Shown piece by piece: positions 9,966 through 21,335 of a DNA stretch of 64,000 nucleotides. The notes under the pieces were generated by a model. The model was given only the letters and a program-made list of their open reading frames with translations. It was not told the origin of the DNA and did no database searches. The position numbers and the translations under genes are program-made. The first letter of the stretch is position 1; each line of letters begins with the position of its first letter. Source of the stretch: Thermoplasmatota archaeon (lineage in GTDB: Archaea > Thermoplasmatota > Penumbrarchaeia > Penumbrarchaeales > Penumbrarchaeaceae); NCBI GenBank assembly GCA_029762535.1, contig JARVGK010000003.1, positions 1 to 64,000 on the forward strand. The letters are read 5' to 3'.

Positions 9966-12900
9966 ATGAGATGGAGTATCGATACTATCCCTTGTCTGAT
10001 TTTGATCGCACTGCTTATAGTGGCATCCATCCCCGGATCGGTCCGATCCTCCGACCAGGATCCCGTCGTCAACGATGCTGCGATGCCTCGTTCCACTCCT
10101 GATCCGCTACCGGAACGATTCATCACTTCGCCCTGCTTCATCGAGAACAGGGGCCAGGTGGACGAGGGTATACTGTTCTACGCGCACCTTCCCTACGGCA
10201 GGATCGCCTTCACGGCCGAGGGCGTCCTTATCACCATTGTCGAAGGATCAGCCAACTCCCGCCTCGAAGGCACCAACATACTCCTGACCTTCCCTGATAG
10301 CGGAGGGGCTCCTGTGGGAAGGGATCGGGTCCCGGGAAGCTACAATTACTTTTACGGCAGGGATCCGGACCTTTGGCTGACCGACGTTCCCGCTTACAGC
10401 AAAGTGGTCTTCGAAGGCCTCTGGGGCGGGATAGATATGGTATATGGTTTCCACGATGGACACCTGAAATACGACCTGATAGTGCCCCCGGGCGTCGATC
10501 ATGATCGTATCGAGATCAGGGTGGAAGGGCATGAGCTTCTTTCCCTGGACATGGATGGGGCCTTGGTCCTCCATTCCATACACGGCCCGGCTATAACCGA
10601 TTCCGGACTCGTGGCATTCCACGAGGGAGATCCCACAACGGAACTGATATCGGAGTTCGTGATCATCGACGCTGACTCCTATTCGTTCCGGGTCGTGGGC
10701 AGGGATCCGTCCCGGACCCTCGTGATAGATCCTCTGGTCTATTGCACGTATTTAGGAGGATCGGGTATGGACACCGGACGCGGGATCGCGGTCGACGGCT
10801 CCGGTCACGCCTATATCGCCGGCAGCACGGAATCGACGGACTATCCCATAACCATTGGAGCTTTCGACACGGAACAGAACGGCAACACCGACATCTTTGT
10901 CACGAAGATCTCCAAGGACGGCAAGGACCTTGTATATTCCACGTTCGTGGGCGGGACCGACAGCGATGAGGCCCGAGGAATAGCGTTGGACGGATCGGGA
11001 AATGCCTACGTCACCGGGTTCACCCGATCGACCGACCTCCCGACAACGGACGGCGCCTTCCAGAGTGACCTGAGCTATCACTACGACGCTTTCGTCCTCA
11101 AGCTGGGGTCCGCTGGCTCATCCCTCGATCATTGCACATACCTCGGGGGAACCGGCAGCGACTATGCCTATGGCATCGCAGTTGATGGCAACGGATCCGC
11201 TTACATAACCGGAAGGACAGATTCTGCGAACTATCCTACGACGAGTGGCAGTTATTCGACCACATACAACGCCAACAGGGACGTTTTCGTCACAAAGCTG
11301 GGGCACAACGGGACGTATCTCGAGTATTCGACCTTCGTTGGAGGGTCCGAGTTAGATACCGGATATGGTATAGCGATCGATGATGGTGACAGTGCGTATG
11401 TTGTCGGTTATACGGAATCATCGGATTTCCCGACGACCGGTGGTGCCTTCGATACGAACTTCAACGGCGCGACGGACGCCTTCGCCATCAAGATGAACAG
11501 GAACGGGACCGGCCTGCATTATTCCACCTTCCTGGGCGGGGTGAGCTACGATTACGCTAACGCCGTAGCGGTTGATACGGACGGTTCTGCGTATGTCACA
11601 GGGGAGACGCGTTCCTTCGATTATCCGACCACGACAGGTGCTTTCGATACGACCTATAACGGCGATCTGGACATTTTCGTCACGAAACTGAGCCACAACG
11701 GCAGGTCCGTTCTGGCATCCACCTACCTCGGCGGTACGTCGGCGGAAAGGGCCTACGGGATCGCTGAGGACGGTTACGGATCGGCCTATATAACGGGTTA
11801 CACCTCTTCATCCTCGTTCCCTACCACGAAGGGAGCTTACAAGACCGCATTCCAGGGGGGTAACACCGACTCCTTCATCACCAAGCTTGACGCATCCTTC
11901 TCCGGGCAGGTCTTCTCCTCCTTCATTGGCGGGACAGGCGATGATTGCGGATGGGGGCTGGCAATAGATGACTCATGGAACGTCTTCATAACGGGGGACA
12001 CCGCCTCGACCGACCTCGGGACATCGACGGGAGCATATCAGTCATCCTACGCCGGCGGTTCGATGGACGCCTTCGCCTTGGCGATGAGATCCCCTCCCGG
12101 AGCGGTCCTGGAACTCTCAGCATTGGCGGGTGACGACCATGTTAGGCTTCAGTGGATGGAGCCTGTGAGCGATGGAGGGTCCCCGATATCTAACTACAAC
12201 GTTTACAGAAGAAGCGCCTCCGAGGAGAAGTCGCTCCTCGAAACAATAGGAAAGACCGAAGCGTACATCGACAACGCTGTGACGAAAGGTGTGACATATC
12301 ATTACTCCGTTTCAGCCGTTAACGGCGTGGGCGAGAGCATCCACTCACCGGAGGTGAGCGCACGTCCCGCATCACGGCCGACAGCTCCTCTGAGCCTCAG
12401 AGTGTCCTCCTACGGGGACGGGATGCTGGAGCTGAAATGGGACCTTCCACAGGATACTGGAGGTCTTACCATTCTGCAGTACAGGCTAAACAGGACGTCC
12501 CAGGACGGCACGATGATGAGGAACCTGACCGCGCCAAGGAGCGGTTTCGTTGACACGAGCCTCAGAAATGGGATCGAATACGAGTACACGCTATACGCGC
12601 TAAACGAGATAGGGGCATCCCCGCCCTCTTCACCAATTAGTGGTGTTCCAAGGACACTGCCAAACGCTCCGATATGGGTCAATATCACGGCTGGGCCGGG
12701 GTCCATACTTCTTGAATGGGTACCCCCTCAGGACGACGGCGGGGCCGAAGTTATCAACTATCACGTACACAGGGGACGGGTCGGTGAGATGCTTGAATTA
12801 CATGCGAACCTGTCCTCGTCCGAAACATCGTATAACGATACCGATGTACAGAACGGGATCACCTATCGCTACAGGCTCTCGGCTTTGAACTCGGAGGGGG

Positions 12901-14435
12901 AGTCATCCCTGTCGGAGGAGCGATCTGCAAAACCCGAGGACGCGCCCTTCGCCCCCAGGAACCTGAGCGCTCTATCATCCTCTCGAACGGTAAAATTGGT
13001 GTGGGACCCCCCAGAGTCCGATGGCGGTTCCAGGATCACAGGATTTAGGATATTCGGCGGCCCCGCTGCGGGAGGCCCTGTCCTGATGGGTTCTGTCGGA
13101 AGAGGGGTCTTCGAGTTCACCAACGGATCACTCACGAACGGGGTCACATATTCCTTTTTTGTCACCTGCTTCAACGCGGTCGGCGAATCGCCTCCCTCGG
13201 AGATCGTCACGGCCAAGCCCCTGAGCGTCCCCTCGGCTCCGAGGGAGCTTACGTTAGTATCGGGCGATTCGATGGTCACCCTGGAATGGCAGCCTCCTCT
13301 GGACAACGGGGGCTCACCGATAACGCATTATATCGTTCAAAGGGGTTGGACGCAGGCGGGCCTCCTCAACCTAGTCAATGTGACCCCGGATACAAGGACA
13401 TACATCGATGAGGATGTGGAGAACGGCCTAACATACTTTTACGCTGTCAAGGCCGCGAATGAGGCGGGACTATCGGTCTCGAGCGGGTCCCTATCCGCAG
13501 TTCCCGAGGGCCTTCCCGGTCCCCCGTCCATTCCATCAGTTACGGCGCGCAGGGGTTTTGTTGAGATAAGTTGGTCTGCGCCCCAGGACAACGGCGGTTC
13601 CAAGATCACCGAGATCAGGGTTTACCGCAGGAGCGAGGGATCGGACTTCGAGATGGTCCACGGGGACACCGCCCTTCAAGGCCTGTTCATGGATACTGAT
13701 GTGACCAACGGGGTCACATACGAGTACCGCCTCACATCCGTGAACAGGAACGGGGAAGGTCCACCCACCGATATTCTCTCAGCGATGCCTACCGGATTAC
13801 CTCAGGCCCCCATCTCACTGACCGCGGTCTTTATTGACGGCGGGGTGAGGCTTGAATGGGACCCACCTTCAGGGGACGGAGGTTCCCCTGTATTATCTTA
13901 CAATATCTACAGGAGCATGCCCCCAGAGGGCAAGGAGTTGATCGCGACAGTGGATGCGAACAAGACCTCATATATGGACCCCGATCCCGTAGAGGGGCTG
14001 ATGAGGTATGAGGTCACCGCCGAGAACGATATTGGCGAGGGTCCGACATCTGCCCCCGTGGAAGTCACGATCGAGCCCGAGGAGATCCCCGAAGAGAACG
14101 GTTCCGGGGTGTTGTTCATAGCCATAGCCGCCGGGGCCGTTGTCCTTCTGGTCATCGTTATCATAGTCGTACTCCTCATGAGGAGGAAAAAGGGACCGGG
14201 GCCCGTCCCCGAGGAGGAACCTCCCGTTGAGGAGGCACCTAGGGAGGAAGTCCCACAGGAACAGCCTCCGGACGAGGACTACCTCTCCGATTTCTACACC
14301 GAGGTCGAGCAGGAGGAGATGCCTGATAACGTCTTCAATTTGGAAGAGGCAAAGATAGAGGGAGATGCCACCATGGATCCTCTGACCCAGGGTTCCCCCG
14401 AACAGCCCACGGAAAACCCTTCCTCGAACCCCTAA
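9966..14435 (+). CDS. large surface protein: signal peptide, SBBP beta-propeller repeats, seven fibronectin type III domains, C-terminal TM anchor
   Basis: FIENRGQ/LVIDP N-terminal domain; repeated YLGG-x-D-x-IAVD-x-AY-x-G-T-S-x-P-TT-GAF units; seven FN3 units with W..P..DGGS and Y.V.A.N..GE; TM helix followed by RRKK. Confidence 0.9.
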   Translation: MRWSIDTIPCLILIALLIVASIPGSVRSSDQDPVVNDAAMPRSTPDPLPERFITSPCFIENRGQVDEGILFYAHLPYGRIAFTAEGVLITIVEGSANSRLEGTNILLTFPDSGGAPVGRDRVPGSYNYFYGRDPDLWLTDVPAYSKVVFEGLWGGIDMVYGFHDGHLKYDLIVPPGVDHDRIEIRVEGHELLSLDMDGALVLHSIHGPAITDSGLVAFHEGDPTTELISEFVIIDADSYSFRVVGRDPSRTLVIDPLVYCTYLGGSGMDTGRGIAVDGSGHAYIAGSTESTDYPITIGAFDTEQNGNTDIFVTKISKDGKDLVYSTFVGGTDSDEARGIALDGSGNAYVTGFTRSTDLPTTDGAFQSDLSYHYDAFVLKLGSAGSSLDHCTYLGGTGSDYAYGIAVDGNGSAYITGRTDSANYPTTSGSYSTTYNANRDVFVTKLGHNGTYLEYSTFVGGSELDTGYGIAIDDGDSAYVVGYTESSDFPTTGGAFDTNFNGATDAFAIKMNRNGTGLHYSTFLGGVSYDYANAVAVDTDGSAYVTGETRSFDYPTTTGAFDTTYNGDLDIFVTKLSHNGRSVLASTYLGGTSAERAYGIAEDGYGSAYITGYTSSSSFPTTKGAYKTAFQGGNTDSFITKLDASFSGQVFSSFIGGTGDDCGWGLAIDDSWNVFITGDTASTDLGTSTGAYQSSYAGGSMDAFALAMRSPPGAVLELSALAGDDHVRLQWMEPVSDGGSPISNYNVYRRSASEEKSLLETIGKTEAYIDNAVTKGVTYHYSVSAVNGVGESIHSPEVSARPASRPTAPLSLRVSSYGDGMLELKWDLPQDTGGLTILQYRLNRTSQDGTMMRNLTAPRSGFVDTSLRNGIEYEYTLYALNEIGASPPSSPISGVPRTLPNAPIWVNITAGPGSILLEWVPPQDDGGAEVINYHVHRGRVGEMLELHANLSSSETSYNDTDVQNGITYRYRLSALNSEGESSLSEERSAKPEDAPFAPRNLSALSSSRTVKLVWDPPESDGGSRITGFRIFGGPAAGGPVLMGSVGRGVFEFTNGSLTNGVTYSFFVTCFNAVGESPPSEIVTAKPLSVPSAPRELTLVSGDSMVTLEWQPPLDNGGSPITHYIVQRGWTQAGLLNLVNVTPDTRTYIDEDVENGLTYFYAVKAANEAGLSVSSGSLSAVPEGLPGPPSIPSVTARRGFVEISWSAPQDNGGSKITEIRVYRRSEGSDFEMVHGDTALQGLFMDTDVTNGVTYEYRLTSVNRNGEGPPTDILSAMPTGLPQAPISLTAVFIDGGVRLEWDPPSGDGGSPVLSYNIYRSMPPEGKELIATVDANKTSYMDPDPVEGLMRYEVTAENDIGEGPTSAPVEVTIEPEEIPEENGSGVLFIAIAAGAVVLLVIVIIVVLLMRRKKGPGPVPEEEPPVEEAPREEVPQEQPPDEDYLSDFYTEVEQEEMPDNVFNLEEAKIEGDATMDPLTQGSPEQPTENPSSNP

Positions 14436-14470: not shown

Positions 14471-15745
14471 TTATAGGGGACACCCGCCCCCGCACTGGAC
14501 GACCAGATCGCAGTTCGCGCACTCCTTTGGGGCCATACTGCGATCTCGAAACCTCCTGCAAAGATCGCTTTCCCAGATCCGGTCCCACGGATCAGAGAGG
14601 ATGTTCCCTAAACCCTCGTAGTAGCTCTGGCACGGTATAACGGTCCCGTCCGGCTCCACGGCCATGTTCATGCGGCAGGCGGTGCACTGCTTCATGCCCA
14701 GGTCCAGTTCCATCGGGTCCAGATCGCAGTAGCGGGTGGGAGAATACCATCTGAACTCGTACTCCTTGAGGATGGAGTCCTTTCTTGCCTCTTTCAGAAT
14801 CGGTATCAGATCCTCGCAAGGGACGCCCTTCGCTTCTTTTCCTCTTCCGGAACGGATGATCGCATTGACCGCGACATGCTTCACACCCATGTCTCCCAGG
14901 AAGAGGACGGTTTCAAGCGCGCTCTCTTTGTTAGCTTCCATGATCGTTGTGTTGGTGACAAGGTATATTCCCGAATCCAAAGCGTTCTTGATGCCGGCTA
15001 TCGTCCTCTCGAATGAGCCTTTCGTCCCCGTGATCCGATCGTGCAGCGACGGTTCATGGGATGCCAGGGTTATCTGTACATGGTCAAGCCCCGATGAGAT
15101 CAGTTCGTCCAAGTAGGATCGCTCGGAGAGTTTCTTCCCGTTCGTGTTCAGACCAGTTATCTGTCCGGTCTCTTCGGCAAAAGCTATTAGTTGAGGCAGA
15201 TCGTCCCTGATCGTTGGCTCCCCGCCGGTGAAGACAATGTGCGGGATACCTATTTGCCACAGCTTGAGGAGTACCCCCTTCCATTCCTCTGTAGAAAGCT
15301 CTTTCTTCGCCCGATTTTTCTCGTTGTAGCAGTGGCCGCAGTCGTTGTCGCACCTGTAGGTAAGGGCGAGGTCCATTCTGAAAGGGGCGATCTGCCCTGT
15401 GTATATGTCCCCCAATTCATCGTCCATGTCAAGGACGATGTCCTTCTGCTCCAGCACACCCATCATCGCGGTCTTGAAGACCTGCAGATCGCTTTTGACG
15501 ACGTCCTTCTTCACCCTGTATCTACGTCGGATCTCCTTTACGATCCTTGCATCATCGGCGCCCTCCAGAAGCAATTTCGCGAATTGTATGCCGGTCCCGT
15601 TCAACGTTATGAGGCGTGAGGCATCGACTATGAGTATGCCCTTGTCCCTGGAATCCACCCTCAGGTGCATCCTCCTGCCTTCCAGAGGCCCCGATCCAGT
15701 GAAATGATACACTCCCGGTCTGAGCTTTTCAGGAAAAGGCCACAT
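14471..15745 (-). CDS. radical SAM/SPASM enzyme with N-terminal PqqD-like (RRE) domain
   Basis: CDNDCGHC (CxxxCxxC), FTGGEPT, NTNG; SPASM CTAC..VEPDGTVIPC..CANCDLVVQCGGGCP; PqqD-like LNGTG..IVKEIRRRYRVKKDVVKSDL. ATG 15745 overlaps the upstream TGA (TGATG). Confidence 0.92.
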   Translation of the reverse strand: MWPFPEKLRPGVYHFTGSGPLEGRRMHLRVDSRDKGILIVDASRLITLNGTGIQFAKLLLEGADDARIVKEIRRRYRVKKDVVKSDLQVFKTAMMGVLEQKDIVLDMDDELGDIYTGQIAPFRMDLALTYRCDNDCGHCYNEKNRAKKELSTEEWKGVLLKLWQIGIPHIVFTGGEPTIRDDLPQLIAFAEETGQITGLNTNGKKLSERSYLDELISSGLDHVQITLASHEPSLHDRITGTKGSFERTIAGIKNALDSGIYLVTNTTIMEANKESALETVLFLGDMGVKHVAVNAIIRSGRGKEAKGVPCEDLIPILKEARKDSILKEYEFRWYSPTRYCDLDPMELDLGMKQCTACRMNMAVEPDGTVIPCQSYYEGLGNILSDPWDRIWESDLCRRFRDRSMAPKECANCDLVVQCGGGCPL

Positions 15746-17334
15746 CACCTGCCACCCCCCGCACACGCGCAGGCGCACGCACACGCGCAGGCGCATCCTC
15801 CTCCTCCAAAACCCCCCCCGGAGCCGCCTGTTGAGGGCGGATGCAGCAGGCTGGTCACGCTGGCGCTGAGGTTCCTCGTGCTAGAGGCGACGTTCTTTGA
15901 CAATGACCTGACGTTGTTCACGTAGGACCTTGCGAAGGACCCGGGAACATGCCCTCCGGAGGTTCCGGGGGAATGGATGGTAGAATGCCGCGCCGTTCTC
16001 ACGGGCATGAACAGCGGGAGTATGAGGACGTCCATCTTCCTGTCGTAGTCCTTATCGACCATGAGCCATTCGTCGTTCTCCCTGACCTTCTGCTCCAATG
16101 GTCCAAGCTCCCTGCACTCGCCCACCTGGCCCCATGCCTTCTCAACGATCCCCTTGTAGTATTGTTGTGTCTTCTTCTGCGAGAACCCCTTCATCTTCTT
16201 CTCGGTGGCCTTGATCATGTCCTTCATCGCCTTCTCCACAAGGTCCCTCACGAGCTTTCCGTCATCCCCGATGGCATCATAGAGCCCTCTCTCATATTCA
16301 TGCTCCAGCTTTTTTGGATCGATCCTGTAAAGGAAATCGCTTCCGTCCTCTGCGGGGGTGATCGCCTTTTTCTTGATCATGCCGTAGATGATGATCGAGA
16401 CCACCTTCTCCAGGGGGTATTCTAGGACCATGGCCGCCTCCGGGGCGGTCAGGCCTGTCCGCGGCGGCCCCGTGAAGGAGATCGCGGGCCTGAAGTAATC
16501 CTCTTTCTGCTTCTGGGATAGTATTATTACCCCGACTATGATCGCAGCGATGACGAGTATGGGCGAAAGCGTGCAGAGGAGGGCGCATATCGAGGAGATG
16601 AACGCCGATAATCTATCCAGGAAGGTCTCCTTGTAATACTTATCCACATACTGCTTTGGAAACGCCACGCCGACGTCCGTCTTTCCGGACGATATCTCTG
16701 ACGGGGACCTCGGACCCAGGTCCCAGGTGAGCTCGATACCTTCGATGGTGCTAACGTGATCGTCCCATTTCATATTGTGATATGCGGTGCTCTCGAGGTC
16801 GATGATCTCATAGGGCAGGGTCATGTGAACGATGAGCGATCCCGTTTTCCCTCTCTGGAACTCGCTCGAGAACCACGTGGGGCGGAAGACCACGCTCGCC
16901 ATGCTCTTGTTGTTCGGGCTCTCCCAAACCATCCTGTCCACGTTTATGGAGAACTCCAGAACGATCCTGTGCTCCCTTGCGGCGTTCACTTTGACTTCGA
17001 CCCCCGGGTCCACGTATTCCGATCTACCCGCCGACGGAGCGAAGTTCCTCTGCAGATCTCCGGCAGGGTCGTATATCCAAACCTCCGCCCTGGCCGTAGA
17101 TAGCCTGTAATGAGAGTTGGGCATGCCCACATCTACGTATTCGAAATTGGATCCCCAGTTGATGAATTCGAAGCGATAACGGATATCGCAGCTGCCATCC
17201 TTCTTTATCTGGACCCATGCCTCCTGGGCCATCAGCTCGAAATCGTATTCCTTCGCTTCCGATCCCATGCTCATGGCCCATGTGGAGAAGATCAGCCCAA
17301 GAAGTAGAAGGGCGATGAGGCGCAACCTTACCAT
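15745..17334 (-). CDS. membrane protein (DUF2207-like architecture) with Gly-rich (Cys-Ala)6-GGGR C-terminal tail
   Basis: Signal peptide, extracellular beta domain (IKKDGSCDIRYRFEF), TM helix, LTAPEAA motif, tail GGSGGGFGGGG-CACACACACACA-GGGR. GAGGAGG SD before ATG 17334. Confidence 0.8.
   Translation of the reverse strand: MVRLRLIALLLLGLIFSTWAMSMGSEAKEYDFELMAQEAWVQIKKDGSCDIRYRFEFINWGSNFEYVDVGMPNSHYRLSTARAEVWIYDPAGDLQRNFAPSAGRSEYVDPGVEVKVNAAREHRIVLEFSINVDRMVWESPNNKSMASVVFRPTWFSSEFQRGKTGSLIVHMTLPYEIIDLESTAYHNMKWDDHVSTIEGIELTWDLGPRSPSEISSGKTDVGVAFPKQYVDKYYKETFLDRLSAFISSICALLCTLSPILVIAAIIVGVIILSQKQKEDYFRPAISFTGPPRTGLTAPEAAMVLEYPLEKVVSIIIYGMIKKKAITPAEDGSDFLYRIDPKKLEHEYERGLYDAIGDDGKLVRDLVEKAMKDMIKATEKKMKGFSQKKTQQYYKGIVEKAWGQVGECRELGPLEQKVRENDEWLMVDKDYDRKMDVLILPLFMPVRTARHSTIHSPGTSGGHVPGSFARSYVNNVRSLSKNVASSTRNLSASVTSLLHPPSTGGSGGGFGGGGCACACACACACAGGGR
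15760..15795 (-). repeat. 18-bp tandem duplication encoding (Cys-Ala)6
   Basis: TGCGCCTGCGCGTGTGCG x2 on the - strand. Confidence 0.9.
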
Positions 17335-17717
17335 ATAGGGTCCTCCTCGATGGAATATGTCGTGCCGCAGTACGGGCATATGACCGAGAGGCCCATGTCC
17401 CCCAGCTTCACGTTCTCGGAGGTTATCGGACCGGAGCAGGACCTGCACTTCATCTCCTTGAATCTCCTCTTCCCAGAGACCAGATCGTCCGAGCCGATGT
17501 TGACATTCTGCTCTATCCTGACCTCGGGAGGCCTCTCGTTCTTCTTCAGGTAGATGAAGATCCCGAGGGGGATGAACCCGATGATGAGTAGCACGACCGC
17601 CGTTATGATGATCGAAACGTCATAGGGCGGAGCCAGGGCGGCTATGAAGAAAATGGCCGAGAACAATATGAAGAAAACACCGGTCCCGATAAGCAGGAAC
17701 CCTGCCCAACCCTTCAT
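17328..17717 (-). CDS. two-TM membrane protein with C-terminal zinc ribbon
   Basis: Two hydrophobic helices, then CRSC...CPYC; stop overlaps the start of the next gene (ATGGTAA). Confidence 0.8.
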   Translation of the reverse strand: MKGWAGFLLIGTGVFFILFSAIFFIAALAPPYDVSIIITAVVLLIIGFIPLGIFIYLKKNERPPEVRIEQNVNIGSDDLVSGKRRFKEMKCRSCSGPITSENVKLGDMGLSVICPYCGTTYSIEEDPIW

Positions 17718-17849
17718 GGGAGGGCGATGGTCTTTTTGATTGTTAAAACCTATCGAAGCGAAAGCGTCATGACCTGCATATTGACCGACCCCCTGTAAAC
17801 GGTTATAAAGTCATACGTTCCTTACGCTCAGGGATATGGAGGAAAAAAC

Positions 17850-20800
17850 ATGGAATCGAGGCTCAGGACCATGATGGGGTTGATCGTGTTGCTTCTGCTG
17901 TTCGCAGTCTTCAACGGAGTAACGGGATCGGCCGAGATCGAGCGTGTTGAAGAGGAAATCACAGGGTTCGAGATGATCCGGGTGGATGATCCAACGAACA
18001 GGATCATCGAAAAGGAGTTTATAACCCCGATCCCTCTCGGACCTGATGAACCGATTTTTTTCGAGGGATGGGGCCCGCTCTTTGACACATTCTATACGGA
18101 CACAGAGCCTCTAAGGATGAGCGCGATGCCCCCTCGTCTCTCCGCGGCTCCGACTAGGGGCAGCGACGATGAGGGCGAGCAGAACTACAACGATTTCTCG
18201 AACGGGTCAAGGCTCCTAACGCCTACGGACAGCGTATCGGGGTCGCTCAATTTCGATACCAGCGGCCAAACGAGCGACTGGATAGACTGGTACAAGTTCA
18301 AGTTGGACGACATAGACCCGTCCCCGAACGCACCCAACGGGGCTCGCAACATCACTTTTACACTCAATGACTACAGGGACCAGGACGGTAATTACGGCCT
18401 ATACGAGTACGCGATCACATGGATCAACGAGACGACATACGAGCTGTCGGAGGACTATGCGGACCTTCTGCATGTTTATTTCACCTACTACGATCCGTTA
18501 AGGGGGCCGATGCGGCTTGGCGGCTGGTCATTTTTCTACGACGACAAGGATTACACAGACGGATGGTCATGGGACTCCAACTGGACCGTGGACCTCGTCG
18601 CTCCCGTCCCCTCGACCGGTGAGGAGGACATGGACGGGCTGGCTAACGGCCTGACGGAGGTGGGCTGGTATTACGTCGGTATAGCGCTCGATTGGTATGG
18701 TAACCCAGACGCACCCGATAGATCTTCCTTCGGGGTCCAATACGATCTCTCCATCGACACGTCCAGAAGGCAGGACACCGACAGCGCCGCGAACGACATG
18801 GACGTAGCCGGACCTATCGTATCCGGCCAGGGATACAGGACATTCTCCAGGTACAACAACGTCGATTGGTTCAAGGTTGAGGGATCGGACCCCTCAAAGC
18901 TCTGGAACATGACGATCAACGTCACACGGACGGGAGCAGCCGCGCCAAGGTCCTTCTTTCCGACCATATACGACCCGTGGCAGCATCTCTACTTCCTGTG
19001 GCATCACGCGGGTGAGGACGATATCTGGGATACGGATGACGACGGTATGTTCTATTACCACGTGATATTCTCGGCGTTCTTTTCCGGCAGACTTGGGGAT
19101 GCGCTGCTGATAGGTGATGAGTTCCAGAACATAGAATTGAACCTGAGGAACACCTGGACCCAGACGTCCAAGCGCGAAGTGTATGTTGGTTTATATTCGG
19201 AGCCGCTGACCTTGGAAGTCAACGAACAGGGCGAGATAACGGGTATCTTCTACCAATCCGATTGGTTCGCACTATCAGAGTACAGAGTGGATATCGGCAT
19301 TGTGGAGGAAGCGGTCAACAGGCCGCCGACCATACCGCTGTTGAGGTATTCCTCGGATTGGGAACCCCGACCCGAAGGCGGCCATTACGGGTCCGTCTTC
19401 ACCTTCGATGTGGCCTACAGCGATCCGGACAACGACCCCCCACAGAGCCTGTACCTGCGCCTCGATCCGGACACCCCCCAACAGAAAGAATACTCTCTTC
19501 TGGATAAGGACGTGGACAAGAACGACCTCACATATTCAGACGGCAAGCTCTACCGCATCGACCTAACCGGAGAGGAGATAGGTGAGGGGGCCCATGTCAT
19601 CGAGGCTCAGGGTAGGGATTCGATACCTTTCGGCTCCCTAAGGGAGCCCATGGGGTCAGCTCCTCAGATCATATCCGATGAGCTAGTCGTATGGAACGAC
19701 GATCCGGTTGGATCGGACCAATTGTGGGATGGGGTTCCAGATATTTACGAGGACGATCCGCCTCTCGTCATCCCGCTCCTGAGCTCCGGGTCCGTAAGAG
19801 GTCCGTTCAAGGACGCGGAGGGGATCCTCACAGAGATCAAGGTGTTCTCCAATGGAACATGGGAGGATGAGATAACGAGCGATGTGGTCAAACTCACGGT
19901 GTCCCTCCTGCCTGAACCGGTAATGAGAATAGAACCACTTCCCGATCAATTCGGGTCGGAGACGTTCATGTTGAAGGCCTCCGATGATCATTCCTCGGTA
20001 GAGAGATCGATCGAAGTGGTGGTGATCCCCGTCAACGATCCGCCTGTGATCACCTCGGTTAGAAGGGCGGGAACGGACCATCCCGTCGTCATGAGGAACT
20101 CCCTCTCTTATTTGGCGGACATGGAGGATGTCTGGGTGGTCCTGGAGGACGAGGTCCTGGAATTCTTCGTGATCGCAAGCGACATAGATATAGGTGGCGG
20201 ATCCCTGGAATACAGTTACCTGCCCGAGTTGTCCGATAACTGGAAGCAGCCTCCTGTGATAACTTCCACCGGATGGGTCACGATGACCCCCAGGAACGAC
20301 GATCTGAGAAAGAGCGAGATGACGTTCTCGGTGAGCGATGGGGAGGAGGAGGTCATACTGCTGCTGGTGATCAAGGTGACCAATACGAACGATCCTCCTC
20401 AGATACATTTCCCAGTTGAACCGGGCAAGGAATATTCCCAGTTCGACAGGATCGTCCTGAGACCCTCCGGAAGCGACATAGATCCAGGCGATATACTAAG
20501 CTTCTCCGTGAACATGTTGGAGGATCTCGGCTCCGCCTATCCCTCGATCGATGATCAGCTCCCGGACCTGGTCTTTACTAACGACATGTGGGATTTCGAC
20601 ACGAGGACAGCAGAGTTCTGGTTCAAGCTGGACGATCAGGGAATATGGGGATGGGGTCCCGACAGGGAAAGGACCAAGACAATAACGGTCGCCTTCAAGG
20701 TCACGGATCTCGAGGGGGCATCGGCACTTATCTCAGTGGAGCTGTCATTGATCGATGTGAATGAACCTCCGGAGGCACCGACCCTCATCAGGTACAGCGT

Positions 20801-21335
20801 CGATGATGCGGACGTGGACCCTTCAACCCCTTATCTTATCGAGAGGCACAGGGTCAACCTGTGGGTCGAACCCGTAGAGGATCCCGACGGGGACACCCTC
20901 ACCTACATGTGGGACCTCGGGGACGGGAGGACCGCAGAGGGTCTCAATATAAATCACACCTATTCCTCCGCCGGAACCAGGACCGTGAGGGTATGGGCGA
21001 GCGACGGTCTCCTCGACGGCGACGTGATCTCGACGTCGGTCGTGATACCGCCTGACGAGGACGTATACGTTCCGCCACCCCCTAAAAAGGAATTCCCGAT
21101 CTGGCTGATCATAGTGATAGCCCTCATCATCCTCTTCATCATTGCTGCCGCGGTCGTTTTCATCGTATTGAAGGGTAAAAAGGCTACGGAGGATGATGGG
21201 TCCGCTAAGGCAAACCGCTATGATCAAGACGATCGTGGGGATACAACAGAGGGAGCCCTGAACACATGCCCTTCATGCGGCGGGAGCGTTCAGCCCTCTT
21301 GGTTCATATGCCCCTCCTGCAAGAGCAGGCTATAG
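17850..21335 (+). CDS. large acidic surface protein with cadherin-like/Ig repeats, PKD domain, TM anchor and cytoplasmic zinc ribbon
   Basis: Signal peptide; VNDPP/TNDPP/VNEPP repeats; PKD motif WDLGDG..NHTYSSAG; TM helix; CPSC..CPSC. Confidence 0.85.
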   Translation: MESRLRTMMGLIVLLLLFAVFNGVTGSAEIERVEEEITGFEMIRVDDPTNRIIEKEFITPIPLGPDEPIFFEGWGPLFDTFYTDTEPLRMSAMPPRLSAAPTRGSDDEGEQNYNDFSNGSRLLTPTDSVSGSLNFDTSGQTSDWIDWYKFKLDDIDPSPNAPNGARNITFTLNDYRDQDGNYGLYEYAITWINETTYELSEDYADLLHVYFTYYDPLRGPMRLGGWSFFYDDKDYTDGWSWDSNWTVDLVAPVPSTGEEDMDGLANGLTEVGWYYVGIALDWYGNPDAPDRSSFGVQYDLSIDTSRRQDTDSAANDMDVAGPIVSGQGYRTFSRYNNVDWFKVEGSDPSKLWNMTINVTRTGAAAPRSFFPTIYDPWQHLYFLWHHAGEDDIWDTDDDGMFYYHVIFSAFFSGRLGDALLIGDEFQNIELNLRNTWTQTSKREVYVGLYSEPLTLEVNEQGEITGIFYQSDWFALSEYRVDIGIVEEAVNRPPTIPLLRYSSDWEPRPEGGHYGSVFTFDVAYSDPDNDPPQSLYLRLDPDTPQQKEYSLLDKDVDKNDLTYSDGKLYRIDLTGEEIGEGAHVIEAQGRDSIPFGSLREPMGSAPQIISDELVVWNDDPVGSDQLWDGVPDIYEDDPPLVIPLLSSGSVRGPFKDAEGILTEIKVFSNGTWEDEITSDVVKLTVSLLPEPVMRIEPLPDQFGSETFMLKASDDHSSVERSIEVVVIPVNDPPVITSVRRAGTDHPVVMRNSLSYLADMEDVWVVLEDEVLEFFVIASDIDIGGGSLEYSYLPELSDNWKQPPVITSTGWVTMTPRNDDLRKSEMTFSVSDGEEEVILLLVIKVTNTNDPPQIHFPVEPGKEYSQFDRIVLRPSGSDIDPGDILSFSVNMLEDLGSAYPSIDDQLPDLVFTNDMWDFDTRTAEFWFKLDDQGIWGWGPDRERTKTITVAFKVTDLEGASALISVELSLIDVNEPPEAPTLIRYSVDDADVDPSTPYLIERHRVNLWVEPVEDPDGDTLTYMWDLGDGRTAEGLNINHTYSSAGTRTVRVWASDGLLDGDVISTSVVIPPDEDVYVPPPPKKEFPIWLIIVIALIILFIIAAAVVFIVLKGKKATEDDGSAKANRYDQDDRGDTTEGALNTCPSCGGSVQPSWFICPSCKSRL

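Follow-up and report, generated by a model that had tools for sequence, protein, structure and literature searches.

Introduction

On what does a radical S-adenosylmethionine (SAM) enzyme act if its operon holds no gene for a precursor peptide? This question is raised by three genes at positions 14471-17717 of a 64,000-nucleotide stretch (positions 1-64,000 of contig JARVGK010000003.1, assembly GCA_029762535.1) of a Thermoplasmatota archaeon of the Penumbrarchaeaceae, here called the window. The genes encode a small zinc-ribbon membrane protein, a 529-amino-acid membrane protein that ends in six Cys-Ala pairs followed by GGGR, and an enzyme in which a PqqD-like RiPP recognition element (RRE; RiPP, peptide made by the ribosome and modified after translation) is fused to radical SAM and SPASM domains. 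An original prediction, made from the letters of the window, named the Cys-Ala tail of the membrane protein as the substrate. Our analysis suggests that the enzyme probably does modify covalently the tail of the membrane protein encoded just 5' of it. Thioether cross-linking as the kind of modification is put forward more tentatively, as a possibility that falls somewhat short of even chances. The cassette as such belongs to a widespread system without a name, of which it represents the archaeal form.

A cassette of three overlapping genes

The three open reading frames (ORFs), 17717..17328 (129 amino acids), 17334..15745 (529 amino acids) and 15745..14471 (424 amino acids), are all located on the minus strand. 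Stop and start codons overlap in ATGGTAA at 17328-17334 and in TGATG at 15743-15747, and the latter couples the tail gene and the enzyme gene translationally. Both overlaps are as originally predicted, and so are the ORFs of the small protein with two transmembrane helices and a zinc ribbon and of the 529-amino-acid protein with Gly linker, (CA)6 and GGGR. The gaps that bound the operon measure 35 nucleotides on the 3' side, towards a convergent gene, and 132 nucleotides on the 5' side. Since the three genes overlap and the flanking gaps are short, there is no space for a separate precursor gene inside the operon; none fits, and the earlier statement that no short precursor ORF is evident nearby stands. 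The main elements are:

17328..17717, minus strand: small membrane protein gene, first gene of the operon (129 amino acids; ORF)
15745..17334, minus strand: tail protein gene (529 amino acids; signal or anchor helix, ectodomain, transmembrane helix, helical domain, leader-like block, Gly linker, (CA)6-GGGR)
15748..15795, minus strand: core tail, consisting of (CA)6 (15760-15795) and GGGR (15748-15759), followed by the stop codon
14471..15745, minus strand: RRE-radical SAM-SPASM enzyme gene (424 amino acids; Pfam matches to PqqD, Radical_SAM and SPASM)

Joint occurrence of tail and catalytic enzyme

Homologous loci were collected by scanning a single genome for each species, with the tail motif as seed. 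At least 311 genomes contained a relative and 80 loci were kept, which are tail-bearing by construction. The gene order of the window, with zinc-ribbon gene, tail gene and radical SAM-SPASM gene, was found in 10 archaeal and about 60 bacterial loci. A catalytic-type enzyme is encoded directly 3' of the tail gene in 58 of the 65 loci with enough sequence. For the remaining 7 a catalytic enzyme with intact CxxxCxxC motif and SPASM end is located elsewhere in the same genome, giving a total of 65 out of 65. Two of these unlinked genomes encode a methyltransferase directly after the enzyme, and in one the enzyme gene lies beside a second tail gene. The assumption of the original prediction that tail-bearing homologues keep the radical SAM enzyme was borne out by these counts.

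An unseeded search with the profiles of both proteins covered 151 genomes drawn evenly from the phylum of the window. The same 10 genomes carry the tail protein and the enzyme, and 139 carry neither. The other two contain a tail-gene fragment at a contig end and a distant tail-less relative (G060), respectively. Within the window's own family the occurrence of the pair is patchy and always joint.

Conservation of the Cys-Ala tail

The sequence (CA)6-GGGR forms the C-terminus of the 529-amino-acid protein and is preceded by a Gly-rich linker. Elsewhere in the 2.96-Mb assembly none of the six frames contains three or more CA in succession. Archaeal homologues end in (CA)5-7-GGGR and bacterial ones mostly in (CA)4-G-(CA)3-GGGR. 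The tail was compared across 79 loci from Thermoplasmatota, Chloroflexota, Acidobacteriota, Cloacimonadota, Zixibacteria and others. Its amino acids are invariant, with synonymous variation at every codon position. Among 52 bacterial tails of 19 residues both codons are used at each Cys, all four at each Ala and Gly, six for Arg and all three stop codons.

In the window the stretch coding for (CA)6 (15760-15795) is a perfect tandem of an 18-nucleotide unit present twice, which indicates that repeat number changes by duplication. Judged by its codons, the tail is under protein-level selection, and repeat number changes by duplication or slippage within a constrained peptide. From the mixed codons it had been proposed earlier that selection acts on the protein and that the repeat is not a microsatellite. 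The synonymous variation among the 79 loci supports this proposal, which has to be qualified locally by the perfect duplication of 18 nucleotides.

The core motif was also observed in short proteins from other metagenomes (P0086-P0089, P0091, P0092 and P0096). Here the Gly linker, (CA)5 and GG(G/S)R are non-terminal and are followed by a conserved A-G-C-S-x-K-D. These proteins apparently represent a different family with the same core motif.

Architecture of the tail protein

The AlphaFold2 (AF2) model of the tail protein has a mean predicted local distance difference test score (pLDDT) of 81.5, with low-confidence helices at residues 466-497 and a disordered tail. The following parts were delimited:

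16657..17241, minus strand: ectodomain, beta-sandwich, residues 32-226 (AF2 pLDDT >90 over most of the range; Foldseek)
16510..16602, minus strand: single central transmembrane helix, about residues 245-275 (hydropathy and flank charge)
16009..16446, minus strand: predicted cytoplasmic helical domain, residues 297-442 (AF2 pLDDT 86-95; several invariant residues)
15820..15948, minus strand: leader-like block, residues 463-505 (per-column conservation and gap counts)

Foldseek matched the ectodomain to the N-terminal domains of OST1/ribophorin I and of the M1 aminopeptidases ERAP/LTA4H. For the 35 family members compared, net charges between +3 and +8 were counted on the C-terminal side of the transmembrane helix in most cases, and the N-terminal side is neutral or negative. 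As the C-terminal flank is positive across the family, the C-terminal half of the protein is predicted to be cytoplasmic and the ectodomain to lie outside, which would place the tail within reach of an oxygen-sensitive enzyme.

The leader-like block comprises 43 residues and is free of gaps from archaeal to bacterial homologues, with flanking stretches that vary in length. Close to its beginning one Gly and one Ala are invariant, and a Pro at its end is nearly so. We infer from this pattern that the block may be a built-in leader, and we propose it as the putative recognition sequence of the RRE.

No Pfam or NCBIfam family matched the tail protein over its cut-off. The protein is DUF2207-like, with a language-model similarity of 0.94-0.97 and a TM-score of 0.40-0.45, the latter being a weak fold likeness. 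The DUF2207 Pfam models (PF09972/PF20990) did not match the window protein, and one of the 35 family members matched, at an E-value of 0.073. DUF2207 proteins (PF09972 and PF20990) share with the tail protein a signal peptide, a beta-sandwich ectodomain, a transmembrane helix, cytoplasmic helices and a Gly-rich C-terminal tail. To our knowledge, ordinary DUF2207 proteins have neither a Cys-Ala core nor a radical SAM partner.

Tail-less relatives and their partners

Three relatives of the tail protein are tail-less (G060/P0218, P0219 and P0225, at L090:3088-5755, L099:176-2337 and L100:5001-7681). Further tail-less members were obtained in a search of 1.84 billion representatives, and contigs were readable for two of them. 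The tail-less membrane proteins have about 410-434 amino acids and a conserved ending of their own, and the leader-like block is missing from all three as well. In hhalign the G060 relative matches columns 14-442 of the 548-column profile with a probability of 99.6% and has neither linker nor tail. The gene after it encodes a 452-amino-acid homologue of the enzyme (99.4%), which has kept the PqqD-like part and is devoid of CxxxCxxC and CX2CX5CX3C. The same holds for the partner of each tail-less relative (3/3) in that the PqqD-like domain is kept and CxxxCxxC is gone. The two full-length partners also lack the SPASM Cys residues, and the third (L099) runs off the contig end. Neither the zinc-ribbon gene nor the methyltransferase gene was found at the one tail-less locus with 5-kb flanks.

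Tail and catalytic machinery appear to go together in these comparisons. Wherever the tail is missing, the enzyme has no catalytic apparatus either, as expected if the tail is the substrate.

The RRE-radical SAM-SPASM enzyme

Pfam matches to the enzyme comprise PqqD (PF05402) at residues 39-90 with 26.5 bits against a gathering score of 23.4, Radical_SAM with an E-value of 2.9e-25, and SPASM with 41 bits against a gathering score of 21.5. With CxxxCxxC, the seven-Cys SPASM motif and a PqqD-like RRE, the protein shows the features of the class of RRE-fused radical SAM/SPASM maturases:

15449..15715, minus strand: N-terminal PqqD-like RRE domain, about residues 11-99 (PF05402; modelled secondary structure; SkfB, SuiB and CteB alignments)
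15329..15352, minus strand: CxxxCxxC radical SAM cluster motif, residues 132-139 with C132, C136 and C139 (invariant in 31/31 aligned orthologues)
14480..14728, minus strand: SPASM region with seven family-invariant Cys residues (C340, C354, C372, C409, C412, C418 and C422)

The SPASM region contains the motifs C-X12-G-X4-C and CX2CX5CX3C, and archaeal enzymes have C357 and C396 as extra SPASM Cys residues. The seven invariant residues are one short of fully ligating two clusters and, by analogy with CrpC, would leave one iron free for an external ligand. The AF2 model, based on 31 orthologues, has a pLDDT of 88.4 and displays four strands and three helices at residues 11-99, corresponding to RRE topology.

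In sequence, the enzyme is closest to SkfB and PqqE among proteins of solved structure, the SkfB alignment starting at residue 31. In fold it is closest to SkfB, SuiB and CteB, which align over the full length including the RRE at an identity of 16-24%. Enzymes of the SPASM/twitch kind such as anSME and EpeE are also among the fold neighbours. All 25 listed NCBIfam families, including PqqE, NirJ2, AhbD, MftC, SkfB, AlbA, StsB, GeoRSP and TIGR04347, scored far below their cut-offs, the best being PqqE with 127 bits against 381. TIGR04463, the CrpC family, reached 46.3 bits (C36:14474-15385) at a cut-off of 525.

Accessory genes

The small protein encoded by the first gene has two hydrophobic, presumably membrane-spanning helices followed by a cytoplasmic zinc ribbon of the form CxxC...CPxC, and its C-terminus reads E-x-P-x-W. 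In 74 members of its family C91, C94, C114, P115, C117, E125, P127 and W129 are invariant. It matched no Pfam or NCBIfam family. Homologues are encoded 5' of the tail gene in 73 of the 76 loci with at least 500 nucleotides of upstream sequence.

A second radical SAM-like paralogue, which lacks the cluster Cys residues, is present in 33 of 54 loci, all of them bacterial. This Cys-less bacterial type is absent from the window genome. A second radical SAM gene was considered as a part of the archaeal cassette and was rejected, the copy in the related locus L004 being an unrelated radical SAM protein (22% identity).

A gene for a class I methyltransferase is present with the cassette in 40 of 54 loci, and in the other archaeal loci (10 out of 10) it lies directly beside the cassette in convergent orientation. 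The presence of such a gene inside the window was rejected, as none was found there. The only orthologue of the window genome is located on the same contig at a distance of 113 kb (C36:130432-131091; L085:4433-5092). A pyrD-pyrK-...-larC-like block ends with this gene, and the same block adjoins the cassette in L004. No protease or exporter is conserved across the 80 loci; the zinc-ribbon protein, the Cys-less radical SAM paralogue and the methyltransferase alone recur.

Proposed mechanism and points that weigh against it

In the mechanism that we favour, the cytoplasmic RRE-radical SAM-SPASM enzyme would act in cis, with the C-terminal tail of the membrane protein as its target. Its RRE would dock on the leader-like block, and a tail Cys would ligate the open iron of an auxiliary cluster. 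The 5'-deoxyadenosyl radical could then take a hydrogen from a neighbouring Ala or Gly, and a thioether from the Cys sulfur to carbon would be formed. Repeated cycles would lead to a ladder of cross-links. A hairpin register would set every Cys opposite an Ala or Gly, with the archaeal repeat making a two-residue turn and the bacterial central Gly lying in a three-residue turn; the last Cys of the tail would face the GGG. The zinc-ribbon protein and the class I methyltransferase are presumably part of the same system, and the methyltransferase may add a further step. A thioether ladder is favoured because SkfB and CteB make Cys thioethers, StsB builds a sactionine hairpin, and CrpC and QhpD act on whole proteins. 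A complex prediction of the enzyme with tail residues 440-529 gave a score of 0.02, the mark being 0.32, and weighs neither way on binding.

A more elaborate version of this mechanism, which is rather doubtful, takes the methylated thioether ladder as a new, permanent modification that would be spread over many anaerobic phyla. The enzyme or its pseudo-paralogue and the zinc-ribbon protein would stay together in a complex at the membrane, through which a signal from outside the cell would act on a cytoplasmic element sensitive to redox state or metal.

Several points speak against modification of the tail. Cys-X-Cys repeats are classic metal-binding sites of the metallothionein type, and the tail could work unmodified. 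The match of the enzyme to PqqD is barely above threshold. Kin are not independent in the phylum sample. The three tail-less cases may represent one old lineage and hence a single event. Moreover, the enzyme family also has a lasting non-catalytic role, probably in binding, beside the membrane protein. Pseudo-enzymes persist both beside the tail-less relatives and in bacterial cassettes, so that adjacency alone is no proof of catalysis on the tail.

A further point of this kind concerns the window enzyme itself, which lacks about 17 C-terminal residues and the final SPASM Cys found in most archaeal orthologues. The protein ends two residues after the last motif Cys (window 14471-14480). The PqqD-like domain expected by the original prediction is present, as are the Radical_SAM and SPASM matches, and it is the completeness of the SPASM domain claimed there that has to be qualified. 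The short end is common to a 95%-identical relative from another sample (P0098), which also agrees in gene order and in its convergent neighbour, and in the nearest clade the last C-terminal Cys is replaced. For both reasons, the short end looks tolerated rather than freshly broken.

Alternative explanations

The strongest competitor of covalent modification, still an unlikely one, regards the tail as an unmodified element that binds metal or an Fe-S cluster, e.g. as ligand or electron conduit for the auxiliary cluster of the enzyme in a lasting complex; a substrate, if any, would have to be sought elsewhere. The alternating Cys-X-Cys pattern resembles metallothionein, and the seven invariant SPASM Cys residues leave one cluster iron open. 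The Cys-less partners beside tail-less relatives and the pseudo-paralogue in most bacterial cassettes point to a stable association without catalysis. However, a catalytic enzyme is kept in 65 out of 65 tail-bearing genomes tested, and the enzyme loses its Fe-S ligands where the tail is lost. Simple metal binding would not need the absolute conservation of Ala and GGGR, and the nearest characterised relatives of the enzyme are all peptide cross-linkers.

Somewhat less likely again is a modification of the tail by chemistry other than thioether formation. Alternating L-to-D epimerisation, an oxidation that turns Cys into formylglycine or a dehydro residue, or a group bearing lipid or methyl and involving the methyltransferase come into consideration. 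Epimerases (EpeE) and anSME are found among the SPASM/twitch fold neighbours, and strict alternation of the tail residues would suit epimerisation of every other residue. The methyltransferase fits as well, being present in 40 of 54 loci and following the enzyme directly even where the tail gene lies elsewhere. Nevertheless, the best matches are SkfB and CteB, which have an RRE, whereas anSME and EpeE have none, and for a CxCxC core there is a thioether precedent in StsA.

The combination of leader-like block, Gly linker and core resembles a leader-core peptide, and the 529-amino-acid protein might be viewed as an oversized precursor whose modified tail is cut off and set free as a small RiPP. 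This option, also raised in the original prediction, is very improbable. A conserved protease or exporter is missing from the 80 loci, the tail is predicted to be cytoplasmic, and the ectodomain and cytoplasmic domain are strongly conserved, i.e. the whole body of 500 amino acids. A search limited to short proteins also mostly returned fragments of full-length genes on short contigs.

A DNA microsatellite next to the enzyme gene by chance could account for the perfect 18-nucleotide tandem duplication and the range of 5 to 7 repeats in archaea, and has practically no chance of being correct, since it is refuted by the free codon differences among loci that encode an invariant peptide and by a pairing that holds across phyla.

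Relation to known systems

The system had been considered uncharacterised, and no description of the cassette was found in Pfam, NCBIfam or the literature searched. A close parallel in substrate type is CrpC, which installs thioethers on the full-size archaeal protein CrpA in Methanococcus voltae (PMC13692751). CrpC has seven SPASM Cys residues, and an open Aux I iron was proposed to receive the substrate Cys (PMC13692751). CrpC/CrpA (TIGR04463) and the system described here have in common an archaeal RRE-radical SAM-SPASM enzyme, seven SPASM Cys residues and a Cys-rich full-size neighbour protein. In contrast to the integral membrane protein with its Cys-Ala tail, CrpA is soluble, has about 29 kDa and consists of ten 17-residue C-x-x-Q/D repeats.

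With regard to the core, a similar case is StsB, which turns the CxCxC...GxGxG core of StsA into a hairpin of nested sactionine links whose acceptors are Gly (PMC10288494). StsB/StsA, as well as BlaB/BlaA, share the C-x-C-x-C core, small acceptors and an RRE-dependent radical SAM-SPASM enzyme (PMC10288494). The differences lie in the short precursor of secreted type, the separate RRE protein and the separate G-x-G-x-G acceptor run of StsA. The StsB family model matched the window enzyme with an E-value of 3.6e-23, far below its 625-bit cut-off.

SkfB, the SCIFF maturase CteB, and SuiB are the best matches over the whole length, and SkfB and CteB make Cys thioethers, but the substrates of all three are short leader-core peptides, and none of their NCBIfam models scored above its cut-off. 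Sactipeptide and ranthipeptide systems likewise have short leader-core precursors of less than about 100 amino acids, whereas the candidate substrate in the window is a membrane protein of 529 amino acids. QhpD forms several intra-chain cross-links in QhpC (PMC7876137). QhpC, the gamma subunit of quinohemoprotein amine dehydrogenase, is comparable in that the cross-linked protein stays in a complex. It differs as a small periplasmic subunit with Cys-to-Asp/Glu links and no repeat tail, and QhpD belongs to another family and context. The haloarchaeal pseudo-SAM/SPASM family TIGR04347 has lost the cluster Cys residues and in this resembles the second paralogue of bacteria and the proteins paired with the tail-less relatives; the window enzyme, in contrast, keeps all cluster motifs and scored 112 bits against this family's cut-off of 525.

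The action of an RRE-radical SAM-SPASM enzyme on a full-size protein is already known in print, and what would be new is the tail of a membrane protein as target. If modification of the tail is confirmed, radical chemistry of the RiPP type extends to integral membrane proteins and a new post-translational modification would be at hand. It would occur in hundreds to thousands of uncultured anaerobes of both domains, including Methanomassiliicoccales, Anaerolineae and Acidobacteriota; Methanomassiliicoccus, Anaerolinea thermophila and Herpetosiphon are among the carriers according to their records. For DUF2207-like proteins with Gly-rich tails it would be a first lead to their function. With a substrate of about 90 residues and one enzyme the system is compact and open to direct testing, and the tail-less proteins and pseudo-enzymes offer natural controls.

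Gene starts and neighbouring genes

The ATG giving 529 amino acids was chosen as start of the tail gene, as it fits the N-termini of the homologues. A longer version from GTG at 17448 was rejected, its N-terminus not fitting the homologues. Similarly, a longer enzyme from ATG at 15796 misfits the homologous N-termini and reads the CA repeat in another frame. This start adds a spurious Arg/Leu/Val/Cys-rich extension of 17 residues, which is present in the database entries P0098 and P0102. In the archaeal loci (window 15745-15760; L005-L014) the codons for GGGR provide a G-rich stretch resembling a Shine-Dalgarno sequence just 5' of the coupled enzyme start. The stop codon of the tail gene is TGA in 10 out of 10 archaeal loci and variable in bacteria.

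On its 5' side the operon is bounded by one further element, assigned by position alone:

17718..17849, no strand assigned: divergent intergenic region, presumed promoter site (132 nucleotides)

The operon is flanked by genes for two very large surface proteins on the plus strand (window 9966-14435 and 17850-21335). One of these proteins has 1489 amino acids and contains DUF7948, SBBP beta-propeller repeats and six FN3 domains. The other, of 1161 amino acids, combines PKD/Big_9 domains with a terminal transmembrane helix and a double CxxC zinc ribbon. A PKD/zinc-ribbon gene of similar kind flanks the cassette in L004.

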